The notes below the pieces were generated by a model. It was given only the letters and a program-made list of their open reading frames with translations. It made no database searches and had not been told where the DNA came from. 64,000 nt of DNA from Candidatus Onthoplasma sp. (lineage in GTDB: Bacteria > Bacillota > Clostridia > Christensenellales > UBA1242), in NCBI GenBank assembly GCA_965646995.1, contig CBFGBH010000002.1:5977-69976 (forward strand). Reading direction: 5' to 3'. Numbering within the stretch: the first letter of the stretch is position 1; the number at the start of each line of letters is the position of its first letter. Of this stretch, positions 1 to 41,646 are shown piece by piece. A program made the translations under genes and the position numbers.

Positions 1-1380
1 GATATCTTTAGGATTAGTGCTGTAGTAATGTCATCTAATGAATGGGATAGTGGCATATTAGGAATAGTGTGCGCTCGTATTGCTGAAGAATATCATCGTC
101 CTACATTTCTTTTTAGTCAAGTACAGGATGAGTTGGTCGGTTCATGTAGAAGTGTCAATGGCGTAAATGTGCATACATTACTCAGTAGCATGCCTCATTT
201 GTTGACTAAATTCGGAGGTCATCCAATGGCGGCAGGCTTGACACTGAAAGTCGAGAATTATGATGAGTTTGTTAAACTTACCAATGATTATGTGGCAGAG
301 AATTTAGATAAATCTGATTTTCTACCGACAAAAAGTTACGAGTTTTCACTGGATGAAGCGGAAATAACATTGAAATTTGTCGAAGATATTGATAGATTAG
401 AGCCATGTGGACATATGAATTCTCGTCCGATTTTCATGTTTAAATTAAAAAACGCCTTTGTTAGCTGTTTACCTAAGCATCCACAACATTTGGTTTTATC
501 TTATCCATCTTTTAGTTTGTTGGCGTTCAATGCTAGTGATAAATATTTTGTCCTATCAGGTAATACTTCATGCAATTTACTAGCAGATTTGAATATAGAC
601 ACATTTAGAAATACTAAGAAGATTTCAGGCATTGTGAAATCAATCGACTACGAGGATATTTATAGACCAGTAGACCATGAGATAATAGAGGCAGAATATA
701 TTAAACAAATTACTTATCCACTAGAAAGTACTTATACCTTCAATAATTATAATCGTGATCAATTGATTAGGCTATTAGTTGATATGGATAAAAATGTATA
801 TGGTACACTAATAGTTGCAAATGATTATAATACCTACATTAATTTTAAAGCAATATTTGATAGCAATAATATTTTTAGAAATCGTATATTCGACATTAAT
901 GATGAAACAGGTTTAAATACAATATTGCTTGCGCCTACAGATTTTAAATCATTTAATACATTCAGTAGAATAATATTCTTAGACCCAATACTTAATATGG
1001 GGTATTTGTCAGAGCTTCATAAAAAAGCTAAATCAACAGTGTATCTACCTCATATGCCAGCAAGTGCACATTCATTATTAAATAAGATAGACTTATCTAG
1101 GCAGATATTTGGGAAATATTTTAGACTTATTCAGTTTGCTTTTGAGAATCAAATTCGTGGTTATTATTGTTATGATATGTATCACAATTTACTAGCGAAG
1201 TTGAAGGATAAAGATAATTACTCTTATTTGCAATTTTATACTTGTCTGAATGTCTTTAAAGAATTAGGGATAGTGGAGGTTAGTGATAACTTTAATGAGA
1301 TAATTAAAATTACAGATAAGAAGAATCCGCTTAATGCGAGTTCATTTTACAATAGATTAGCTACACTTAAACAAGGATAA
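1..1380 (+). CDS. recJ: Single-stranded-DNA-specific exonuclease RecJ, C-terminal part (5' end lies outside the window)
   Basis: Reading frame is open from base 1. 'GILGIVCARIAEEYHRPTFLFS' and 'GGHPMAAGLTL' match the RecJ DHHA1/C-terminal region. Confidence 0.8.
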   Translation, partial: DIFRISAVVMSSNEWDSGILGIVCARIAEEYHRPTFLFSQVQDELVGSCRSVNGVNVHTLLSSMPHLLTKFGGHPMAAGLTLKVENYDEFVKLTNDYVAENLDKSDFLPTKSYEFSLDEAEITLKFVEDIDRLEPCGHMNSRPIFMFKLKNAFVSCLPKHPQHLVLSYPSFSLLAFNASDKYFVLSGNTSCNLLADLNIDTFRNTKKISGIVKSIDYEDIYRPVDHEIIEAEYIKQITYPLESTYTFNNYNRDQLIRLLVDMDKNVYGTLIVANDYNTYINFKAIFDSNNIFRNRIFDINDETGLNTILLAPTDFKSFNTFSRIIFLDPILNMGYLSELHKKAKSTVYLPHMPASAHSLLNKIDLSRQIFGKYFRLIQFAFENQIRGYYCYDMYHNLLAKLKDKDNYSYLQFYTCLNVFKELGIVEVSDNFNEIIKITDKKNPLNASSFYNRLATLKQG

Positions 1381-1417
1381 AAGATATATACTAGATATTG
1401 TGTATATATCTTTTTTT
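1381..1417 (+). terminator. Rho-independent terminator after recJ
   Basis: AAGATATATA/TATATATCTT 10-bp stem followed by a T7 run. Confidence 0.7.
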
Positions 1418-1532
1418 ATACTCATGTATTAGAATAATAGTGTTATGCCAAAAATTAAAATAAAAATAAACAAACTTATAAATTTGTTTGCTATACATTT
1501 AAAATTTTGATATAATTTAAGCGAGGGTTAAA

Positions 1533-2225
1533 GTGCTATATTATTTATTATTCGGTAGTGATATGACAGCGGAACAAGCGGTAATTAATTTTGTAATTAC
1601 TATTATTGTTTTTGTCATCTCTTTATCTATCCATGAGTTTGCACATGCTTTATCTGCATTTAAACAAGGCGACCCTACAGCAAAACTTGCAGGTAGACTG
1701 ACACTAAACCCATTTAAACATCTAAGTCCTTCTGGATTTTTGATGTTTGTATTCTTTGGCGTAGGCTGGGCTAAACCCACACCTGTCAATCCATTGAATT
1801 TTAAAAAATATAGGTCGGGTATCCGTAAGGTGTCTTCTGCGGGTGTAATAGCTAACTTTATACTCGGTTTAATTAGTGCTGTGTTATATGCAATATTATA
1901 TTGGACTATAGGTGTTCCTAACGAGTTTATGATGTATTTATTACTAATATTGCAATATTTTATGTTAATAAATAGTTTCTTAGCGTTATTTAATATTTTA
2001 CCGATATATCCGTTAGATGGTTTTAATTTTATTACTTCATTTATGAAGACAGAGAATAAATACATCCGTTTCAATTTAAAAAACGGCAATAATATTTTAA
2101 TAGGAATTTTACTTACTAGTTTGATTATAGAAATAATTTTTGGTTTTGACTTAATTGACTTGTATTTATCGCTATTATACAATTATGTTTATATGCCGAT
2201 TACATTTATAGGGGCTTTATTCTAA
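1533..2225 (+). CDS. Site-2 protease family (peptidase M50) zinc metalloprotease
   Basis: HExxH 'HEFAHAL' inside a hydrophobic helix and a downstream 'NILPIYPLDG' motif. GAGGG RBS precedes the GTG start. Confidence 0.75.
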   Translation: MLYYLLFGSDMTAEQAVINFVITIIVFVISLSIHEFAHALSAFKQGDPTAKLAGRLTLNPFKHLSPSGFLMFVFFGVGWAKPTPVNPLNFKKYRSGIRKVSSAGVIANFILGLISAVLYAILYWTIGVPNEFMMYLLLILQYFMLINSFLALFNILPIYPLDGFNFITSFMKTENKYIRFNLKNGNNILIGILLTSLIIEIIFGFDLIDLYLSLLYNYVYMPITFIGALF

Positions 2226-2989
2226 TGGAAGAGATTGTTGATACTATTGACGAAGAATCATCTTCGCATTTAACATTTAGACTGGAGGGGTTTGAGGGTC
2301 CTCTGGATCTTTTGTTGCATCTTATCAAAGAATCAAATATGTCAATAATGGAAGTTAAATTATCAGAGATTACTGACCAATATATGAAATATATGGAGAA
2401 CATAACCGAGCTTGACATGGAAGAAGCTACCGCTTTTCTAGATATAGCCAGTAAATTATTAGAGATTAAATCTAGAAAATTGTTACCAGTAGAAGAGACG
2501 GAAGAAGAAAGTGAAGAGATTGACCCAGAGACTCAGCTTCGCATGCAGATTCAAGAATATGAGCTATTCAAAAATGCAGGTGGAGATTTACAAAAAATTG
2601 AGAATGTAGATAGATTGTATAAGCAGCCGGATAAGTCAGTGGGGGATACCCGAATAGTATTTAACCAGTTTAATTTAGATAAACTTTTAGACGCATTCGC
2701 TTTTATATTAATGCGAACGAAAGATAAAGAAAATCCGCAAGAGAAAAAGATAAATCGCGACAGATGGACGGTCGCTGATAAAATATCTTTCTTAACCAAT
2801 GTCTTAAAAGATAATAAAGAAATCAATTTCTTTAGTTTATTTGATGATACATATTCAAAGCTAGAGGTAATTACGGTATTTATGGCAATATTGGAACTTT
2901 TGAAGTTTCAAAAAATCGAGGTTGTTCAGACAGAAAGATATGCTGACATTTTAATTAAGCGCAGGGAGGAAATAGATGAATCTAAGTGA
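2225..2989 (+). CDS. scpA: Segregation and condensation protein A
   Basis: 'FRLEGFEGPLDLLLHLI' ScpA signature. Overlaps scpB by 14 nt. Confidence 0.9.
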   Translation: MEEIVDTIDEESSSHLTFRLEGFEGPLDLLLHLIKESNMSIMEVKLSEITDQYMKYMENITELDMEEATAFLDIASKLLEIKSRKLLPVEETEEESEEIDPETQLRMQIQEYELFKNAGGDLQKIENVDRLYKQPDKSVGDTRIVFNQFNLDKLLDAFAFILMRTKDKENPQEKKINRDRWTVADKISFLTNVLKDNKEINFFSLFDDTYSKLEVITVFMAILELLKFQKIEVVQTERYADILIKRREEIDESK

Positions 2990-3599
2990 AATAGCTAAAG
3001 TTATTGAAGGAGTATTATTCGTATCAGGAGAAGGTGTAGAGATAGACGAATTCAAATCAAAATATGAAATGAATGATAGAGAATTTAATAAATGTCTAGA
3101 TATATTAAAGGCTAAATACAATGAAGAAAGCGGAATAAATATCATACAATATAAGACTAAAATTCAACTATGTTCAAATCCAAAAATAGTAGATAGTATT
3201 TCTGAAATTCTTAATCCGATTAGAGAGAGAAGTTTGACAAAGGCTGCGTTGGAGACGGTGGCAATAATTGCATATAAACAGCCTGTTACGAGACTAGATA
3301 TAGAGAATATACGTGGCTCCAGTAGTGACTATGCTATACAATTATTGCAGTCAAATAATTTAATTGAAGTAGTAGGTAGAAAGGATACAGTTGGTAAGCC
3401 TTTGCTATTTGGCACGACTGAAAATTTCTTAAAACGCTTCGAGCTAAATTCCATTGATAACTTGCCTAACTATAATGAATTATTAGATAGAATACGCGTG
3501 ATACATAGCGAAGGAGATTCGTTATATAGAGAGTTCACTATTCCAGATGAGTCTACTGCACTAGAAAAAGCTGAACCTGCATCAGAATTAGCGGAATAA
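2976..3599 (+). CDS. scpB: Segregation and condensation protein B
   Basis: 'IEGVLFVSGEGV' and 'LETVAIIAYKQPVTRLDIENIRG' winged-helix pattern. Lies directly after scpA. Confidence 0.9.
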   Translation: MNLSEIAKVIEGVLFVSGEGVEIDEFKSKYEMNDREFNKCLDILKAKYNEESGINIIQYKTKIQLCSNPKIVDSISEILNPIRERSLTKAALETVAIIAYKQPVTRLDIENIRGSSSDYAIQLLQSNNLIEVVGRKDTVGKPLLFGTTENFLKRFELNSIDNLPNYNELLDRIRVIHSEGDSLYREFTIPDESTALEKAEPASELAE

Positions 3600-3658
3600 T
3601 TAAATTTAATTTTCAACTCAATTCGTATAAATACATTAAAAAAAAAGATACTACTAAT

Positions 3659-4243
3659 ATGTGGCATCTTATTTTTTTATTTCTAACTATAATGAATATT
3701 TTAAGTTTAATTTATCCGTTTTTAGTTAAGTTTGATATCCGTTTTAATATCTTAAAATTGCGGGGTTCATTCGCTTTAACGCTATTTAATAAGATTAAAA
3801 TAGATTTCAGAATAAAGATTAAAAATGGCTATATCTATATAAACCATAAAAATAAGTTACGAAAAGAGAAAATCACTAATAATAACTTCAATGTTATATT
3901 CTTCATGAATTTAATCAAACAATTATATTTTAGAGAGCAATTTTTATCTCTATATTTGAAATCAAATTTTGGGTATGTCAATGATTCATGTATTACTGCT
4001 GTAGGTTGTGGTTATATGGATGTGATAGTCAAATCATTTTTTAGTAAACTGAAAAATAACAAAAAATCATCACATATTTTTGTAGATAATGAGCCAAGAT
4101 ATAATGAAGATGTATTTAATATTAGATTAGTAAATACTATCAGAATCTCTATAGCTGATATAGTATATTCACTATTATATACATTAATATATTCATGGGG
4201 TAAATATGAAAAAAGTAGAAAATGTAAGTCTCAAAAACAATAA
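3659..4243 (+). CDS. YtfI-like sporulation membrane protein (assignment by position only)
   Basis: Hydrophobic N-terminus. Sits immediately upstream of and overlapping the ytfJ homologue, as in the Bacillus ytfI-ytfJ pair. I recognised no motif. Confidence 0.4.
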   Translation: MWHLIFLFLTIMNILSLIYPFLVKFDIRFNILKLRGSFALTLFNKIKIDFRIKIKNGYIYINHKNKLRKEKITNNNFNVIFFMNLIKQLYFREQFLSLYLKSNFGYVNDSCITAVGCGYMDVIVKSFFSKLKNNKKSSHIFVDNEPRYNEDVFNIRLVNTIRISIADIVYSLLYTLIYSWGKYEKSRKCKSQKQ

Positions 4244-4601
4244 AATAGAATCGCTTATTGATGTTTCATTGGATAAAATCAGGGGATTGATAGATGTTAA
4301 TTGTGTAGTAGGTAATGCTATTACTATGCCAGATGGTAGCGTAATAGTCCCCATTTCAAAAGTGTCTATCGGTTTTGTGGCAGGTGGTGGAGAATATAAT
4401 GACCTAAATGCAAAACGTAATTCTGCAGATTTTCCTATGGCGGGCGGTACAGGCGGTGGATTCACAGTATCCCCAATAGGATTCTTTGTTGTGAAAGATG
4501 GAAAATTTAAAATAATTCATGCAGATAAATCAACTGCATATATGGGGCTTATAAAAAATGCTACCGAAGTATTAAAACAATTTGCGGAGAAAGTGAAATG
4601 A
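4206..4601 (+). CDS. ytfJ: Sporulation protein YtfJ / GerW family
   Basis: 'VIVPISKVSIGFVAGGGEY' and 'GGTGGGFTVSPIGFFVV' are typical of the GerW/YtfJ family. Confidence 0.8.
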   Translation: MKKVENVSLKNNKIESLIDVSLDKIRGLIDVNCVVGNAITMPDGSVIVPISKVSIGFVAGGGEYNDLNAKRNSADFPMAGGTGGGFTVSPIGFFVVKDGKFKIIHADKSTAYMGLIKNATEVLKQFAEKVK

Positions 4602-5746
4602 AAATATTAAAAAAAGTTTCGGCTCTTACTTTTACTTTGGCTTTAATATGTATATTAGTACTACCAATAATGAATAGTCAGGCAAGTTATGCAGATTATA
4701 CAAGTGCAAAAGGTATGTGCGTTATTGATAAAGATAGTAAGCGCGTATTATATTCATCTAATCCAGATAGAAAATTACCGATGGCTTCGACTACTAAAGT
4801 GATGACGGCGATTACCGTCATTCAGAAATGCCAAGATTTAGAAGAGTATATTCAAGTCGATGATGATGCTGTTGGTATAGAGGGGACTTCTATATACCTT
4901 AGGAAAGGTGAATTAATAAAAGTAAAAGATTTATTATACGGCTTGATGTTAAGAAGCGGTAATGATGCTGCGACTGCATTAGCAATCCATGTTGGTGGCA
5001 GTGTAGAAGCTTTTGCAGACATGATGAATGATTTGGCGAATACAATAGGAGCAAAAAATTCACATTTTGTCAATCCACATGGTTTAGACCACCCAGAGCA
5101 TTACACTACAGCGTACGATTTGGCATTGATCAGTGCATATGCACTAAATAACCCAATATTTAAAGAGATAGTATCTACTAAATCTCATGTAATAGAAGAG
5201 ACTAATATTTCAGATAAAAGGTATTTGACGAATAAAAATCGTTTACTTAATAGTCTAGATGGTTGTTGTGGAGTTAAAACAGGATTCACTAGTAAAGCTG
5301 GTAGATGTTTGGTCAGTGCATGTGAGCATGACGATAGGACTAGCGTGTGCGTTGTATTAAATTGTGGACCAATGTTTGAAGAGAGTACAGATTTGTTGAA
5401 TTCTAGTTTTGAAGATTTTGATTATATTAAAATAATAGATAAGAATCGAGAAATCTATAATGAATATATCATTGAAGAGACGAACGGGAAACTAAATTTA
5501 TATACAAATGAAGATTTCTATTATCCAATGACTTCAAGTGAGAAAAAAGATTTGAAATTAAAATACTTTGTAAGTTTAGATGATTCTAATCCTGACGACA
5601 GTGTTGGAGAAATTCAAATATTTATCAAAAATGACTTGATTAAAACCTTAAAATTGTATACAATGAACAAGATAGATAAATTAATTGATAGCAAGACATT
5701 GCAGATTAATGAAGTACTATGGGAAGAGAATTTGAATGAGAATTAA
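4598..5746 (+). CDS. dacB: D-alanyl-D-alanine carboxypeptidase (low-MW PBP, S11 family)
   Basis: Signal peptide plus SxxK 'ASTTKVMT', SxN 'RSGND' and KTG 'VKTGFT' motifs. Confidence 0.85.
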   Translation: MKILKKVSALTFTLALICILVLPIMNSQASYADYTSAKGMCVIDKDSKRVLYSSNPDRKLPMASTTKVMTAITVIQKCQDLEEYIQVDDDAVGIEGTSIYLRKGELIKVKDLLYGLMLRSGNDAATALAIHVGGSVEAFADMMNDLANTIGAKNSHFVNPHGLDHPEHYTTAYDLALISAYALNNPIFKEIVSTKSHVIEETNISDKRYLTNKNRLLNSLDGCCGVKTGFTSKAGRCLVSACEHDDRTSVCVVLNCGPMFEESTDLLNSSFEDFDYIKIIDKNREIYNEYIIEETNGKLNLYTNEDFYYPMTSSEKKDLKLKYFVSLDDSNPDDSVGEIQIFIKNDLIKTLKLYTMNKIDKLIDSKTLQINEVLWEENLNEN

Positions 5747-6449
5747 TAAATATTTGGCTCAAGCAGGAATTGATAGCCGTAGAAAAGTTGAATCCTTAAT
5801 AATTGAAGGAAAAGTAAAAGTAAATGGAATAGTCTGTAAAGACCTGGCTACAGACATTAAACCAAATGACATAGTGATATGTGCTGGTAAAACAGTGCGT
5901 GTCGCTAATACATATGTGTATTATAAACTTCACAAGCCTAAGGGTTATGTCTCTACAGTGTCTGATGACAAGGATAGAAAGACGATTATGTCTCTCATGC
6001 GTGGAGTACATGCCAGAATCTTCCCTGTGGGCAGATTGGATTATGATACCGAAGGTCTAATACTTTTGACCAATGACGGTGAGATTACTAATATCCTGAC
6101 TAAGCCGAATAGTGAGATATCTAAAACATATATAGTGCATATAGAGAATGACATTACTAAAGACGAGATTAAAGCATTGTGTTCTGGAGTAGATATAGGA
6201 GACTATGTTACTCGTCCGTGTAGTGTAGTTTGTCAGTCAAATACAGAGAAATTGTCTAAATTAAGCGTCACTATAACAGAAGGTAAGAATAGACAAGTGC
6301 GTAGAATGTTTGAAGCAATTGGTAAAAATGTCATTTTCTTAAGGCGGGTACAGATTGGAGAGATTAGACTAGGTGGATTATCAAGGGGCGAATATGCCAC
6401 ATTAAATCCTAAAGAGATTAGATATTTAAATAGTTTAAAGAAGAGATAG
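5736..6449 (+). CDS. rluB: rRNA pseudouridine synthase, RsuA/RluB family
   Basis: S4 domain 'RINKYLAQAGIDSRRK' and catalytic 'GRLDYDTEGLILLTNDG'. Confidence 0.85.
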   Translation: MRINKYLAQAGIDSRRKVESLIIEGKVKVNGIVCKDLATDIKPNDIVICAGKTVRVANTYVYYKLHKPKGYVSTVSDDKDRKTIMSLMRGVHARIFPVGRLDYDTEGLILLTNDGEITNILTKPNSEISKTYIVHIENDITKDEIKALCSGVDIGDYVTRPCSVVCQSNTEKLSKLSVTITEGKNRQVRRMFEAIGKNVIFLRRVQIGEIRLGGLSRGEYATLNPKEIRYLNSLKKR

Positions 6450-6465
6450 ATTTCTCTTCTTTTTT
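6438..6465 (+). terminator. Rho-independent terminator after rluB
   Basis: AAGAAGAGA/TCTCTTCTT stem overlapping the stop codon, followed by a T-run. Confidence 0.75.
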
Positions 6466-6484
6466 ATATAACTATTAAAAAAAT

Positions 6485-6513
6485 TTGACTTTTTTTTAAT
6501 TTCGTTAGATAAT
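6485..6513 (+). promoter_or_regulatory. Sigma-A-type promoter for plsC
   Basis: TTGACT, 17-nt spacer, GATAAT. Confidence 0.5.
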
Positions 6514-6537
6514 ATTATTAAATTAAAAGGATTGAAT

Positions 6538-7134
6538 ATGTTTTTTTGGCTTTGCTTTATAATTTTAGCTATACCATTAGCAATCATATTTCCCGTCAAA
6601 ATAGTAGGGAAGAAACATCTAAAAGTTTTGAAGAGACAGAATTATATTATTTCATGCAATCACATGTCTAATATGGATTCACTATTATTAGATGTTAAGA
6701 TGCGTAAAAAATATAGATTTTTAGGCAAGAAAGAACTTTTTAAAAATAAATTTACCAGTGCCTGTTTGCGTGCGTTGGGTGTTATCTCTGTAGATAGAGA
6801 GCATGCAGATACTCGGGCTGTTAAAGAAATTTTTAAATTAATAGATAAGAAAAAAAATATTTGTATTTTTCCACAAGGTACGCGAGCTAAATCTCCGGTA
6901 GTAGAGGGAGAGACAGCGAAGGAAGGTGTGGCTATGTTTTCTATACGCACTAATACTCCAGTCGTGCCAATGATGTATAATAGGAAATTGCGTGCTTTTC
7001 ATAGAACTAAATTGATTATAGGAGAACCAATTTACCCAGTCGCAGAGAGAAAGAGAGATAAAGAATATTTAAAAGAATTTGCTAATCTAATCGTCACTAA
7101 GATGAATGAATTGCTAGAGGAGAATGTGAAATGA
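6538..7134 (+). CDS. plsC: 1-acyl-sn-glycerol-3-phosphate acyltransferase
   Basis: HxxxxD motif 'CNHMSNMD' and 'FPQGTR'. I prefer the ATG at 6538 (AAGGA RBS 6 nt upstream) over the TTG at 6532 in the track. Confidence 0.85.
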   Translation: MFFWLCFIILAIPLAIIFPVKIVGKKHLKVLKRQNYIISCNHMSNMDSLLLDVKMRKKYRFLGKKELFKNKFTSACLRALGVISVDREHADTRAVKEIFKLIDKKKNICIFPQGTRAKSPVVEGETAKEGVAMFSIRTNTPVVPMMYNRKLRAFHRTKLIIGEPIYPVAERKRDKEYLKEFANLIVTKMNELLEENVK

Positions 7135-37407: not shown

Positions 37408-37436
37408 AATATAGCACATTTAAAAGAACTTGTCAA
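37408..37436 (-). promoter_or_regulatory. lexA promoter
   Basis: Minus strand reads TTGACA, 17-nt spacer, TATATT. Confidence 0.6.
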
Positions 37437-37447
37437 ACATTTGTTCG
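37434..37447 (-). promoter_or_regulatory. SOS (Cheo) box
   Basis: Minus strand reads CGAACAAATGTTTG. This has one mismatch to GAAC-N4-GTTC and overlaps the -35 of the lexA promoter. Confidence 0.65.
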
Positions 37448-37514: not shown

Positions 37515-38561
37515 CTATATTTTATCAATTTTTACTTTGCCGGCAACAGATTTTCTAATATCATCACTAATAGCAGCATAATGTTTTTTAGTAGTGTTAA
37601 CATCTTTATGTCCTAGAACTTCTGCGACTATATATATATCATTTGTGGCGTTATAAAGATTTGTACCATATGTTGAGCGTAATTTATGTGGAGTAATATG
37701 TTTCAATGGAGTGGCTATTTTAGCATATTTTTTCACTAAATATTGTATAGTTCTGACCATCATACGTTTACCTTGACTCGATATAAACAAAGCTCGCTCT
37801 TCTTTTGGTAAATTCAAAGTATCTCGATATCTTAAGTAGTCTTTAAGTGTATCTGCCGTCTCTTCGCCGAAATATAATATTACCTGATTGCCACCTTTCC
37901 TAGTTACTCTAAATGAATTAAGATTAAAATTAATATCATCAATATTTAATCCGACGCATTCACTTACACGTATACCAGTTGTTAAAAATAATGACAATAT
38001 CGCATTATCACGAACTTTAAATTTTTCATTATATTTTTTTTGATGTTCGCCAAACCCGGACAATGTATTGCAAGAATACATGAGTTCAGTGGTCTCTTGT
38101 GGTTCTAGTCTGATTATTGGTTTTTCGTGTAATTTGGGACTAGCTACTTTACTTGCCACATTGGCTCTCAACATATCTTTATTAAAAAAGTATTTAAAGA
38201 AAGCACGAAGAGTAGATAGTTTTCTTAATTTGCCACGCTCACCATTACTGAATATCTCTCCTGAGTCCTTATCATAATAAGAAAGATATGACATGAATCG
38301 CTCAATCAGTCTGGAATCAATCTTATCAATATCGCTAAGACTGATGGTTTTTAATTCTCTTCCCATAAAAATTTCTTCATACGTTATTAGATAATTAAAA
38401 AATGTTTTAAGGTCAATAGCGTAATTAAGTCGTGTAAGAGGAGTAGTAGTGTCCTGAATGCCGATGAAAAATATACTACAAAATGCCGGTAATTCGCCGA
38501 GTATTTCATTTAATTTCTTCATGTTATTACGATTTCTATCTAAATAGTAATTATTACTCAT
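37515..38561 (-). CDS. Tyrosine recombinase (Xer/phage-integrase family; long N-terminal domain, XerS-like layout)
   Basis: 'TGIRVSE' (Arg I), 'VTRKGG', 'HKLRSTYGT' (HxxR) and 'LGHKDVNTTKKHY' (catalytic Tyr). Confidence 0.85.
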   Translation of the reverse strand: MSNNYYLDRNRNNMKKLNEILGELPAFCSIFFIGIQDTTTPLTRLNYAIDLKTFFNYLITYEEIFMGRELKTISLSDIDKIDSRLIERFMSYLSYYDKDSGEIFSNGERGKLRKLSTLRAFFKYFFNKDMLRANVASKVASPKLHEKPIIRLEPQETTELMYSCNTLSGFGEHQKKYNEKFKVRDNAILSLFLTTGIRVSECVGLNIDDINFNLNSFRVTRKGGNQVILYFGEETADTLKDYLRYRDTLNLPKEERALFISSQGKRMMVRTIQYLVKKYAKIATPLKHITPHKLRSTYGTNLYNATNDIYIVAEVLGHKDVNTTKKHYAAISDDIRKSVAGKVKIDKI

Positions 38562-38573
38562 ACAAATATTATA

Positions 38574-38591
38574 CTATATCTTTGCGTAAAA
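38574..38591 (+). repeat. Arm copy 1 of the TATCTTTGCGTAAAA motif
   Basis: CTATATCTTTGCGTAAAA lies 12 nt upstream of the recombinase start codon. After a 9-nt gap comes TTTTAC, the first 6 nt of the complementary arm. Confidence 0.85.
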
Positions 38592-38681
38592 CACAAATAT
38601 TTTTACTATAAACGAAAAAATATTACATGTTACTTGACAAAATCTTTTTTTCATTAGTAATTATAATAGAGGTGAAAAATA

Positions 38682-39239
38682 TGGTACAAGATTTAGGAAA
38701 GTGGGCATTTAACGATATAACTGACGAAGATTGGTACTCAATAGCTGAAGTTTTAGAGAATGAATATGTAACATGAACGGAGTTAAGAAGTGCGTATGAA
38801 AAGTAACTGAGAAAGAGAATACCTATGTGATATATGGAGAGCAAGTTAAAGGCGTTAAGAATGCAAGCGATGAGGGATATGGTTTACTTGCTATTGTTAA
38901 AGTTATAAACAATTATGATTTTTCAGTGAGTACAAATCCAGATAAAGAAGAGCTTTTTATAGACACTTTACTTAAATATTTAATTAAAAATTGTAAACTA
39001 GTTGATTACGATGAAGAATTTACTAGTTATCAATATGATAAGATTAATACTAAAGCGAAGAAAGCTGCAGAGGAATCAGTTAAAAAATTACGTATAATTG
39101 AAAATGAAAAATCTAACAAAGTAAAAGAATCTTTATTAAGGAAAACATACGAATTTTGACCGAAGAGTATAAAAAACTAAATGAAAAAGTTTACAAATTA
39201 TATGAAGAGGTTCATTCTGAAGAAAATAATACTCTTTAA
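38682..39239 (+). pseudogene. Fragmented ORF of unknown function (multiple frame breaks)
   Basis: GAGGTG RBS plus ATG opens a 31-codon ORF. Coding-like sequence continues in other frames (track ORF 38827-39159, then 'LTEEYKKLNEKVYKLYEEVHSEENNTL'). Confidence 0.45.
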
Positions 39240-39304
39240 TTCATGTATATTTAAAACAATATGAATTAATAGATGCTGTAGTTAGAAATTATATCAAAAA
39301 TTTG

Positions 39305-39333
39305 TTGACAAAAAATATGTTATTTTATATAAT
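39305..39333 (+). promoter_or_regulatory. Consensus sigma-A promoter of the serS leader
   Basis: TTGACA, 17-nt spacer, TATAAT. Confidence 0.7.
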
Positions 39334-39339
39334 AAAAAT

Positions 39340-39585
39340 AGTTTAATATATCGTTGATTTGGACTAGTACATTTCTAAAGTATCAGAGAGTTTGCGGTTG
39401 GTGAAAGCAAATTATGGAAGTTATGTACGTCTACCCAAGGAGATACCTGTGAAAATAGGGCTGATTGCATAGCAAAATTTGCAATTAATGAGTGGAATGA
39501 TTTAATTCATTCAAAATAGAGTGGCACAGTGGTAAATATCACCTCTATATTAGTTTTTGTAACTATATATGAGGTGTTTTTTATT
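39340..39585 (+). promoter_or_regulatory. T-box riboswitch leader (Ser)
   Basis: Stem I 'AGAGAG..GGTGAAAGC'. T-box-like 'AAATAGAGTGGCACAGTGG', whose UGGC would pair with the GCCA end of tRNA-Ser. Terminator CACCTCTATAT/ATATATGAGGTG plus T6. The possible UCU specifier is tentative. Confidence 0.75.
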
Positions 39586-39627
39586 TTAGATACCTTGTAT
39601 ATAGTAAATATATTATAAGGAGACAAT

Positions 39628-40920
39628 ATGATAGATATTAGTTTTTTAAGAAATAATCCAGAGATAGTCAAGGAAAATATTAAAAAGAAATTCCAAGACC
39701 ATAAGCTTCATTTAGTAGACGAAGTTATTGTTATGGATGTAAAAGTGCGAGCCTTAAAACAAGAAGGCGATGATTTGCGTGCTAAGCGTAATACTTTGTC
39801 TGGACAAATCGGAATATTAATGAAGAACAAACAAATAGATGAAGCAAATAAAATTAAAGCCGAAGTAGTTAAGAATAATGAACGTATTACGGCAATAGAA
39901 GCCGATGTAGCTGAGTTAGATTCAAAAATTAAGCAGGCTATGATGGCTATACCTAATATAATAGCTGACAATGTTCCTATTGGCGAAGATGATAGTAAGA
40001 ATGTTCAAAGACTTACTGTGGGACAAGCGAAAAAATCAGATTTTGACATACCATATCATGCTGATATATTAGAATCATTAATGGGATTAGATTTAGATAG
40101 TGCTAGACGAACTAGTGGTAATGGTTTTTATTATCTAACTGGGGATGTAGCAAGATTACATTCTGCGATTTTATCATATTCACGCGATTTCATGATAGAT
40201 AGAGGGTTTACTTATTGTATACCACCATTTATGATACATGGAGATGTTGTTAATGGTGTCATGAGCTTTGAAGAGATGGATAATATGATGTATAAAATTG
40301 AAGGCGAGGACTTATATCTTATAGGTACAAGTGAACATTCTATGATTGGACGATTTAAAGGTACAATTTTGAAAGAATCAGACCTTCCATTATGTTTGAC
40401 TTCATATTCGCCATGCTTTAGAAAAGAAGTTGGTGCTCATGGACTCGAGGAAAGAGGTATCTATAGAGTGCATCAGTTCGAAAAGCAAGAGATGATAGTC
40501 ATCTGTAAACCAGAAGATTCTATGAAATGGTATGATAAAATGTGGCAGATATCTTCAGATTTCTTTAAATCATTAGATATACCACACGAAGTAATGGAAT
40601 GCTGTAGCGGAGATTTGGCAGACCTTAAGGTAAAATCTTGTGATATTAATGCTTGGAGTCCTAGACAAAATAAATATTTTGGAGAGCTGGGTTCTTGCTC
40701 AAATTTAACAGACGCGCAGGCTCGTAGATTAGGTATTAGATATAAGACTGAGAAGGGTACAGTACTAGCGCATACATTGAATAATACTGTAGTGGCACCT
40801 CCTAGAATGCTGATTGCATTTCTTGAAAATAATTTGAATGAAGATGGTAGCGTAAATATTCCTATTGCTTTAAGGCCATATATGGGCGGAAAAGAGAAAA
40901 TAGAGAAGAAAAAGGTGTAA
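39628..40920 (+). CDS. serS: Seryl-tRNA synthetase
   Basis: N-terminal coiled-coil arm and class II motifs 'FRKEVGAHG' and 'GELGSCSN'. GGAG RBS. Confidence 0.9.
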   Translation: MIDISFLRNNPEIVKENIKKKFQDHKLHLVDEVIVMDVKVRALKQEGDDLRAKRNTLSGQIGILMKNKQIDEANKIKAEVVKNNERITAIEADVAELDSKIKQAMMAIPNIIADNVPIGEDDSKNVQRLTVGQAKKSDFDIPYHADILESLMGLDLDSARRTSGNGFYYLTGDVARLHSAILSYSRDFMIDRGFTYCIPPFMIHGDVVNGVMSFEEMDNMMYKIEGEDLYLIGTSEHSMIGRFKGTILKESDLPLCLTSYSPCFRKEVGAHGLEERGIYRVHQFEKQEMIVICKPEDSMKWYDKMWQISSDFFKSLDIPHEVMECCSGDLADLKVKSCDINAWSPRQNKYFGELGSCSNLTDAQARRLGIRYKTEKGTVLAHTLNNTVVAPPRMLIAFLENNLNEDGSVNIPIALRPYMGGKEKIEKKKV

Positions 40921-40991
40921 TCATCTTTTTCTTTTTATATTGACAAAGTGGGCTTCATATGCTGTATTACCAATGATATTAGGAGAAATTT

Positions 40992-41138
40992 ATGACTAAA
41001 GAACAACATAAGCTTTTGTATAAAACTGACATTAATAATATTACTGCAAAAGATGTAAAAAATTTTATGCCGTATATTAAAAAGAGAATACTTAAAATTA
41101 AAACTCATAAAAAATTTTCGACGATAACATTAGTATAA
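40992..41138 (+). CDS. Possible 48-aa basic small protein
   Basis: AGGAG RBS 7 nt upstream of the ATG. Ends 10 nt before a strong terminator. Too short for the ORF track. Confidence 0.3.
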   Translation: MTKEQHKLLYKTDINNITAKDVKNFMPYIKKRILKIKTHKKFSTITLV

Positions 41139-41148
41139 TTTAAAGTTT

Positions 41149-41180
41149 AAAATCTGTGACAAATCCTGACAGATTTTTTT
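41149..41180 (+). terminator. Rho-independent terminator of the serS unit
   Basis: AATCTGT/ACAGATT stem followed by a T7 run. Confidence 0.75.
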
Positions 41181-41196
41181 GATTGCAATGTTGGTT

Positions 41197-41214
41197 TTTT
41201 ACGCAAAGATATAG
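41197..41214 (-). repeat. Arm copy 2 (exact reverse complement of copy 1)
   Basis: TTTTACGCAAAGATATAG is the reverse complement of CTATATCTTTGCGTAAAA (18/18). Confidence 0.9.
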
Positions 41215-41518
41215 AATCGTGATAATTAGTTAAAATTTTCTTAAAAGTGACATGTAATGCTGTCTTTTAATTTTTAATGCTGTAATATATCAGTAAAAGG
41301 GCATTCTAAAATGCTCCTAGACGCATTGGACAAAAAATAAATGAGTAATTGTTCATCTAAAATAATATAAATTTATCACAGACTAAAACATATTTTGTAT
41401 TTTTTAAGCTGTGGATTAAAATATGCGACTTATGTCTAATTTTAGTCAAACATGCGTTATTAGAAAGTTTCTGTGGATAAAATACGGCATTTCCACAGGA
41501 TTTTTATCAACTTTTTAA

Positions 41519-41556
41519 TTATCTTTGCGTAAAAGTGTTGTTTTACGCAAAGATAA
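41519..41556. repeat. Perfect 16-6-16 palindrome built from arm copies 3 and 4 (candidate tyrosine-recombinase core site)
   Basis: TTATCTTTGCGTAAAA GTGTTG TTTTACGCAAAGATAA. No U-rich tail on either strand. Confidence 0.6.
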
Positions 41557-41646
41557 ATTTATAGCTTTGCACTCTGCCCTAGAGTTATACACATCTGCAA
41601 AAATAAAAAATCACACTAATTATAGTGCGATTTTATAAAACATACT

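Follow-up and report, generated by a model that had tools for sequence, protein, structure and literature searches.

A conserved recombinase gene and probable dif-like site at the replication terminus of many Clostridia

We analysed a 64,000-nt stretch of the Candidatus Onthoplasma sp. genome (assembly GCA_965646995.1, contig CBFGBH010000002.1, positions 5,977 to 69,976 of the forward strand; hereafter the window), which holds a gene for a Xer-type tyrosine recombinase (37515-38561, minus strand) and, upstream of it, a perfect palindrome (41519-41556). The palindrome is very probably a chromosomal dif-like site, belonging to a recombinase-plus-site module that is found in many Clostridia and would resolve chromosome dimers at the terminus, with the neighbouring recombinase as the presumed enzyme acting at it. 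A dif-like core site had been proposed here in an original prediction made from the sequence of the window, and comparative, compositional and natural-genetic evidence now supports that reading.

The palindrome and the recombinase gene

The 15-mer TATCTTTGCGTAAAA occurs in the window at 38577-38591 (+), 41197-41211 (-), 41520-41534 (+) and 41541-41555 (-), and our re-scan reproduced the copy number of four and all the coordinates given in the original prediction. No further copy with up to 2 mismatches exists in the 64 kb, and shuffled sequences held a mean of 0.58 copies, with four copies reached in 0 of 100 shuffles. The last two copies together form a perfect 16-6-16 palindrome, exactly as had been described, in which 14-nt arms (41521-41534 and 41541-41554) flank a 6-bp central region, GTGTTG (41535-41540). 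We estimate the chance expectation of such a palindrome at ~1.6e-4 per 64 kb at the base composition of the window. It lies in non-coding DNA, flanked by the terminators of two convergent units. Reading of the sequence found no T-run after it on either strand, which agrees with the earlier argument that a palindrome lacking a U-tail does not look like a terminator.

A position weight matrix (PWM) scan found one full site in the 64-kb window, the palindrome itself. The earlier reading had recognised no canonical 28-bp dif in the intergenic regions it scanned, and a Hamming scan of the window with the Bacillus subtilis and Escherichia coli dif sequences likewise gave a best match of 19/28, equal to that of shuffles. 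A family-profile search found no second tyrosine recombinase in the same 64 kb. Because the arms are identical and the window contains no other recombinase or canonical dif, a single protein is suggested as the acting one, and the recombinase would be expected to act alone at the site.

The recombinase, 348 aa long, was assigned with Pfam and NCBIfam profiles to a XerS-like family of Clostridia. It matches the Pfam Phage_integrase domain with 116.8 bits, and its best NCBIfam match is XerS (NF003462), at 177.9 bits against a curated equivalog cut-off of 267; this alignment is colinear over the full length, pairing residues 11-342 with model positions 4-355 of 360. XerC, XerA and XerD follow, and the XerC (162.7 bits, cut-off 335) and XerD (151.5 bits, cut-off 330) scores also stay below their thresholds. 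The XerS model is likewise the best profile match for all 52 of the diverse relatives that we aligned, and the complete catalytic R-K-H-R-H-Y set (R198, K222, H292, R295, H318 and Y328) is invariant in them. Among structures matched by an AlphaFold2 model (predicted local distance difference test score 93.6), the XerH-difH complex gave the best template modelling score (TM-score, 0.64) and XerA the best E-value, and the XerD fold was matched too; at the sequence level, comparison with PDB entries gave E = 5e-8 for XerH and E = 8e-22 for XerD. At E <= 1e-30 the family takes in 721 representatives of 50%-identity clusters, most of them 345-360 aa long. The nearest named relatives come from Candidatus Onthoplasma metagenome-assembled genomes (MAGs) of the Christensenellales, and identity is 80-91% across many MAGs. 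The family is large and apparently vertically inherited.

We call the protein XerS-like rather than XerS because its 177.9 bits fall below the cut-off of 267 and because the centre of the site measures 6 bp, not the 11 bp of difSL. The resemblance to the XerS type suggested in the original prediction therefore holds for the arrangement of a site beside its gene and for the best profile match, but not for the XerS cut-off or the length of the difSL centre.

Conservation, terminus position and prophage insertion

To test the site by comparison, we collected 80 loci encoding relatives of the recombinase (45-85% identity), one genome per GTDB species and ~21 kb per locus, for a total of 1.42 Mb from Christensenellales, Lachnospiraceae, Oscillospiraceae and others. 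Many of these loci have a palindrome directly before the recombinase gene, and the arms of such palindromes (consensus ATCTATTCGTAAAA) were used to build the weight matrix. Across the 1.42 Mb, exactly one full site was found in 65 of the 80 loci and two in none. The full-site consensus is ATCTATTCGYAAAA-N6-TTTTRCGAATAGAT. All 65 sites have a 6-bp spacer, and each one is upstream of its recombinase gene, at a median distance of 382 nt (range 27-6077). The sequence flanking the sites is unrelated between lineages, and the spacer itself is variable and can face either way with respect to the gene. The two arms are systematically unlike in Lachnospiraceae (CGCAAAA vs TTTAACG); since arm sequence is kept while these versions break the symmetry, recognition by a protein is indicated rather than a hairpin. 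Strong arms standing alone number 1.1 per 100 kb outside the module and 12.6 per 100 kb inside it, and those outside lie mostly 3-7 kb beyond the core, where attachment (att) scars are expected. Given this rarity of lone arms outside the module, the motif is not a dispersed repeat in the 1.4 Mb of related DNA or in the window.

A distinct arrangement is seen in Lachnospiraceae loci such as L057, L060, L062 and L067 (L numbers denote individual loci and contigs). There, a conserved gene with a product ending in ...NPGVKERMF...GW stands immediately before the recombinase gene or is overlapped by it at its end, and the dif-like site, with systematically asymmetric arms, lies 1-6 kb further upstream.

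The site lies at a switch in strand composition. The cumulative G-C of the window rises from the left to a maximum at 41487, 32 nt from the palindrome, and then falls, so the terminus-like switch coincides with the palindrome. The original prediction had put the switch about 10 kb away; that distance was wrong, and its correction favours the finding. The same pattern recurs in the survey: with 8-kb flanks, 52 of 60 loci show GC skew changing from positive to negative across the site and 0 of 60 from negative to positive, the top strand being G-rich to the left of the site and C-rich to the right. With 3-kb flanks, 29 of 55 loci show the positive-to-negative change at the site, compared with 1-2 of 37-50 loci when the position is moved 3-5 kb leftward and 10-17 of 52-53 when it is moved 3-5 kb rightward. 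The site thus marks the skew switch at kilobase resolution.

Natural insertions provide evidence of another kind. One recombinase protein, 87% identical to that of the window, is encoded on two contigs of a single species, L083 and L084. The L084 contig has an empty site, ATCTTTGCGTAAAA-CACTTC-TTTTACGCAAAGAT, with arms identical to the window's. At the same point L083 carries a 5.3-kb microvirus prophage with no integrase (L083 2366-7693 vs L084 7666-7699), whose genes encode Phage_ORF5, a Chlamydia-phage scaffold, the F capsid protein and a rolling-circle Rep. Its attL consists of the chromosomal arm, the same spacer and a weaker phage arm, TTTTGCGAGTAAAT, and its attR of a phage arm with a C variant, the same spacer and the chromosomal arm. 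The two alignments of L083 to the empty allele overlap by 24 nt, equal to one arm, the spacer and four bases, and so end inside the site. In a different species, L002, a second microvirus prophage occupies the site (521-5893), and identity between its two junctions stops exactly at the boundary between spacer and arm. In Onthoplasma-like Clostridia, gokushovirus-like prophages occupy precisely the dif-like site, and an empty allele exists in the same species. Among IMG/VR sequences, L177 is a free 5.3-kb microvirus contig with a single attP-like site, and L191 and L255 are contigs with a prophage plus the recombinase. The strain L001, which is 99.6% identical to the window, has 12 of its 57 differences in the 380-nt non-coding stretch 41168-41545; one of them, A to G at 41545 in the right arm, yields the arm variant GCGCAAAA, which is present also in the phage arm of L083.

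These junctions are indirect evidence, read from assembled sequence, that recombination inside the orthologous site occurs in vivo in a relative with identical arms. Read most simply, the host enzyme that works on the palindrome would integrate microviruses, as XerCD does at dif. In E. coli, experiments have shown that the XerCD of the host integrates integrase-less gokushoviruses at dif (PMC7062461), and the same route has been proposed for microviruses of Bacteroidetes (PMC3091885); no gokushovirus prophages outside enterobacteria were reported in PMC7062461.

Other mobile DNA also carries the site or something like it. Another IMEX-like insert (IMEX, integrative mobile element exploiting Xer) is the 5.35-kb element at 604-5987 of the IMG/VR contig L113, which has a rolling-circle Rep and a 538-aa protein lacking any family match and is bounded by a strong-arm/weak-arm site and a full site. 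The inovirus-like IMG/VR contigs L086 (site 5520-5543, recombinase 5577-6650) and L126, each ~6.65 kb, encode a Zot-like/pI ATPase, a rolling-circle Rep and their own recombinase, ~30% identical to the window's, with a core TTCGYAAAA-N6-TTTTRCGAA just upstream; this phage-borne cousin of the module may bear on the origin of the module. Among 231 site-carrying viral contigs, only 4 are related to the microvirus of L002 by tblastn, and some are fragments of tailed phages, which may be chance or unrelated matches.

Lone half-sites and surrounding DNA

The two remaining copies of the motif are lone half-sites. Copy 1, with the arm ATCTTTGCGTAAAA, lies at 38578-38591 (+) within an 18-mer at 38574-38591, and copy 2 at 41197-41210 (-) within an 18-mer at 41197-41214; both score 19.5 bits with the PWM. 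The two 18-mers are exact reverse complements, as first noted, and their similarity extends to 31 nt at 87%. The PWM found no partner arm for either copy at spacings of 4-12 nt. Of the four-copy site set that had been envisaged, the palindrome is thus upheld as the recombination site, but copies 1 and 2 are half-sites without a partner. The 18-mer of copy 1 ends 12 nt from the CAT start codon (38559-38561), and TTTTAC stands 9 nt past it at 38601-38606. Both placements were given correctly, but the relatives do not bear out TTTTAC as the start of a complementary arm, since it is not a conserved second arm in them.

Copy 1 sits in the putative promoter region of the recombinase gene (38562-38598, minus strand), where it fills the 17-nt spacer between a -35 box, TTGTGT (38591-38596), and a perfect -10 box, TATAAT (38568-38573). 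Some 6-7 nt separate the end of the -10 box from the ATG, and a Shine-Dalgarno sequence is missing, which makes a leaderless mRNA probable. Of 79 related loci, 22, those of the Christensenellales branch, have a -10-like box 4-9 nt upstream of the start codon; other branches have a Shine-Dalgarno sequence. The copy 1 arm is invariant at its position in L082, L083/84 and L002 while its flanks diverge, and in 15 related loci a lone strong arm lies <=110 nt from the recombinase start codon, in the position of copy 1 or abutting the -35 box. Judging from this position, copy 1 is most likely an autoregulatory operator through which the recombinase would repress its own promoter.

Copy 2 lies ~310 nt from the core, just beyond the terminator of the serS unit, and overlaps a promoter-like TTTACG-17-GATAAT (41198-41226, +) directed at the core, so that both lone arms stand in promoter-like contexts. 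An equivalent arm is found 320-450 nt from the core in L082, L083/84, L002 and L255. The order of core, lone arm, serS segment, promoter arm and recombinase gene is kept in L082 (91%), L083/84 (87%), L002 (85%) and L255 (74%), and the lone arms are invariant there while their surroundings drift.

We considered whether copies 1 and 2 are the halves of a site once split by an IMEX. The arm orientations fit such a scar, but the adjoining 'spacers', AACCAA and TTTGTG, mismatch the crossover requirement, which counts against this origin. The copies look rather like duplicated operator/promoter modules, because 7 of 10 flanking positions agree as inverted duplicates. The lone arms might also be accessory recombinase-binding sites that would form, with the core, a topologically selective synapse as in TnpI/IRS or cer/psi, with directionality coming from the module's own arms and not, or not only, from FtsK; by analogy this is conceivable, and we think it unlikely. 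TnpI of the transposon Tn4430, reportedly described by Vanhooff et al. 2006 (as cited in PMC8138268), is a tyrosine recombinase with a palindromic core upstream of its own gene and extra single binding motifs on the gene side of that core, all within a compact IRS of ~116 bp. Whereas the IRS is compact and transposon-borne, the extra arms here lie 100 nt to 3 kb from the core, and their role in recombination is putative.

The interval between copy 2 and the core (41215-41518) is non-coding and contains blocks conserved in 4-5 species. Within it, 14-20 nt from the core, is an inverted repeat, CTGTGGA-N14-TCCACAG, with a T-run (41470-41505); a perfect DnaA-box 9-mer, TTATCCACA, forms part of it at 41472-41480. 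A second, relaxed DnaA box, TTATACACA, lies on the opposite side of the core at 41585-41593, and both boxes are conserved in four to five species. The search for structured RNA between copy 2 and the core yielded one short conserved hairpin only, that at 41470-41505, with two covarying pairs and no Rfam match. A cluster of DnaA boxes near the site was considered and rejected, TTATNCACA being not enriched in the window (5 vs 4.3 expected). We do not claim DnaA binding, because the main box is part of the hairpin and T-run. The hairpin with its DnaA-box stem is a candidate terminator, DnaA-binding site or accessory site, and the interval as a whole possibly serves as accessory sequence or encodes a short transcript.

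Otherwise the window is ordinary chromosome of a clostridial bacterium with 30% G+C. The recombinase gene has lexA, a PadR regulator and an ABC transporter to one side; to its other side lies serS, under T-box control, followed by a Met-gamma-lyase-like gene, miaA, mutL and mutS. The T-box leader upstream of serS (39345-39549) scores 86.1 bits (E = 1.5e-18), and is missed at default thresholds because this is just below the Rfam gathering score of 93. Between the recombinase promoter and the T-box (38627-39239) are three consecutive short open reading frames of 49, 110 and 27 aa that resemble a decayed gene; L082 has a 105-aa gene in their place. At 37426-37447 a Cheo-box-like AAACATTTGTTC, with one mismatch to GAAC-N4-GTTC, overlaps the lexA -35 box TTGACA, which is consistent with LexA autoregulation. 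In 17 of the 80 related loci, lexA comes immediately downstream of the recombinase gene.

Alternative explanations, known systems and implications

In the mechanism that we propose, recombinase monomers would bind the two identical 14-bp arms, two such sites on a chromosome dimer would synapse as a tetramer, and an exchange of strands at either edge of the 6-bp centre would resolve the dimer at the replication terminus. Chromosome dimer resolution would accordingly be the physiological role of the system. Small integrase-less single-stranded DNA (ssDNA) phages with a look-alike site would hijack the same reaction, the single arm of copy 1 would allow autorepression of the recombinase's own promoter, and copy 2 would be a conserved extra arm.

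Several points weigh against this account. Binding, cleavage and dimer resolution by the recombinase at the site are predictions from sequence. The prophage evidence comes from a relative with a different spacer (CACTTC vs GTGTTG), not from the genome of the window. Unlike that of classical dif, the G+C of the core site (0.29) is not lower than that of the genome (0.30). Fifteen of the 80 surveyed loci have no full site in the retrieved DNA, and both the uniqueness of the site and the search for XerCD/dif refer to the 64-kb window and the ~21-kb related loci. At finer scale the agreement with the skew loosens: the local skew maximum is offset from the site by a median of +812 nt and lies <=1.5 kb away in just 16 of 39 loci, and the switch is often 0-3 kb toward the recombinase side, plausibly because of the head-on genes there.

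A recombinase gene adjoining its site is also typical of integration modules, and the recombinase and palindrome could together serve a mobile element near the terminus for its integration or resolution, rather than form a housekeeping system for dimer resolution. The inovirus-like L086 and L126, with their own ~30%-identical recombinase and similar upstream core, fit this idea, as does the serS segment between copies 1 and 2, which resembles an insertion. Yet the module stands among the housekeeping genes lexA, mutS, mutL, miaA and serS in conserved synteny, its protein is 80-91% identical across many MAGs in a large and apparently vertically inherited family, and in 52 of 60 loci, from different families, the skew switches at the site. 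Each locus has a single site and no element boundaries surround the recombinase gene, which leaves the mobile-element reading quite improbable. A phase-variation switch is a further reading, in which copies 1 and 2 would be the inverted repeats of a 2.6-kb segment inverted by the recombinase and the palindrome would be secondary. Their exact 18-nt inverted repeats, with 87% identity over 31 nt, do enclose a discrete segment, and the recombinase has weak NCBIfam matches (E ~1e-9) to tyrosine-type invertases. Neither copy is a full core site, however, as each lacks a partner arm at 4-12 nt spacing, and most relatives have one lone arm or none. The segment holds serS, a gene of essential type with its own T-box leader and terminator, and there is no sign of inversion, as serS is opposite to the recombinase gene in 6 of 6 assemblies (the window, L001, L082, L083, L084 and L002). 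We rejected a tyrosine-invertase switch on account of the lone arms and this constant orientation in six assemblies, and consider inversion very improbable.

Least probable of all, to the point where we give it hardly any weight, is that no recombination takes place and that the motif is a transcription-factor operator or the palindrome a terminator or another hairpin of RNA or DNA. The overlap of copy 1 with the recombinase promoter and of copy 2 with a promoter-like site would suit an operator, and a 16-bp palindrome would fold stably. A T-run is lacking, however, the arm sequence is conserved across orders while the Lachnospiraceae versions break the symmetry, and both the constant 6-bp spacer and the strict association with a tyrosine recombinase are what a core site would show. 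The prophage junctions lie exactly inside the orthologous site, and the comparison of attL, attB and attR largely refutes this alternative. That the lone arms may serve as operators belongs to the dif-like explanation and does not compete with it.

The only single-recombinase Xer systems listed in the reviews and recent papers surveyed are XerS, XerH, XerL and archaeal XerA (PMC5357621, PMC9765430). The system described here works like XerS/difSL and XerH/difH and is a member of neither. The features by which difSL and difH are recognised are a palindrome with a short variable centre in non-coding DNA near the skew peak, linked to a single long Xer-like recombinase and occurring once (PMC2731167, PMC1914069). 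The present site is such a palindrome: its centre is short and variable, it lies in non-coding DNA at the skew peak, and it is linked to the gene; its uniqueness was scored in the 64-kb window and the ~21-kb loci. With XerS/difSL of streptococci and lactococci (PMC1914069, PMC2965235, PMC5357621) it shares a recombinase of ~350 aa with a long N-terminal part, a gene and adjoining site forming one module at the terminus, and a similar inner arm (TTTCCGAAAA in difSL vs TTTGCGTAAAA here). However, difSL is 31 bp long, with imperfect unequal arms and an 11-bp centre (PMC5357621), whereas the arms here are equal, near-perfect and 14 bp long around a 6-bp centre, and the hosts are Clostridia, with conserved extra lone arms, rather than streptococci and lactococci. 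With XerH/difH of Campylobacter and Helicobacter (PMC2731167, PMC3325230, PMC5241119) it shares the use, presumed here, of one recombinase (~355 aa there) and a palindrome with A-tract/T-tract inner ends and a variable 6-bp centre (e.g. ATTGAAAA-CTATAA-TTTTCAAAT). Furthermore, difH is likewise usually linked to the gene and near the skew peak, and XerH-difH gives the best structural superposition (TM-score 0.64), but the sequence similarity of XerH is weak (E = 5e-8), its arm sequence is another and it belongs to a different phylum.

XerL/dif of Legionellales, with the IMEX LME-1 (PMC9765430), pairs a single recombinase, as presumed here, with long uninterrupted inverted repeats, and that system too was recognised via a mobile element integrated at its site (PMC9765430). 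Its xerL gene is >400 kb from its dif and XerL is undetectable by Xer homology (PMC9765430), whereas gene and site are linked here and the protein is clearly Xer-like. A close parallel for the prophages is XerCD/dif with its IMEXs, which include CTX, other filamentous phages and enterobacterial gokushoviruses (PMC7062461, PMC3091885). There, too, integrase-less microvirus prophages occupy the site at the terminus and are flanked by the host site and a more degenerate phage site. However, the XerCD host system uses two recombinases and a 28-bp site with unlike arms, in contrast to the identical arms of the window. Kono et al. predicted a canonical dif in Clostridium species having XerCD (PMC3025954). 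We found no published description of this clostridial recombinase-plus-site module in a survey of the literature whose coverage is incomplete, and an earlier description is possible.

If the dif-like reading is true, the module would represent a further single-recombinase Xer family across Christensenellales, Lachnospiraceae and Oscillospiraceae, and it would fill in how chromosome dimers are resolved in dominant gut anaerobes. It would also explain the lysogeny of integrase-less ssDNA phages, both microviruses and rolling-circle elements, in Firmicutes. The site would serve as a precise marker of the replication terminus in MAGs, and the ~350-aa recombinase with its symmetric 34-bp site may become a genetic tool for these hard-to-manipulate bacteria. 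Were the module the sole Xer system of Christensenellales, Lachnospiraceae and their relatives, a large share of gut Clostridia would rely mainly on it to resolve chromosome dimers.

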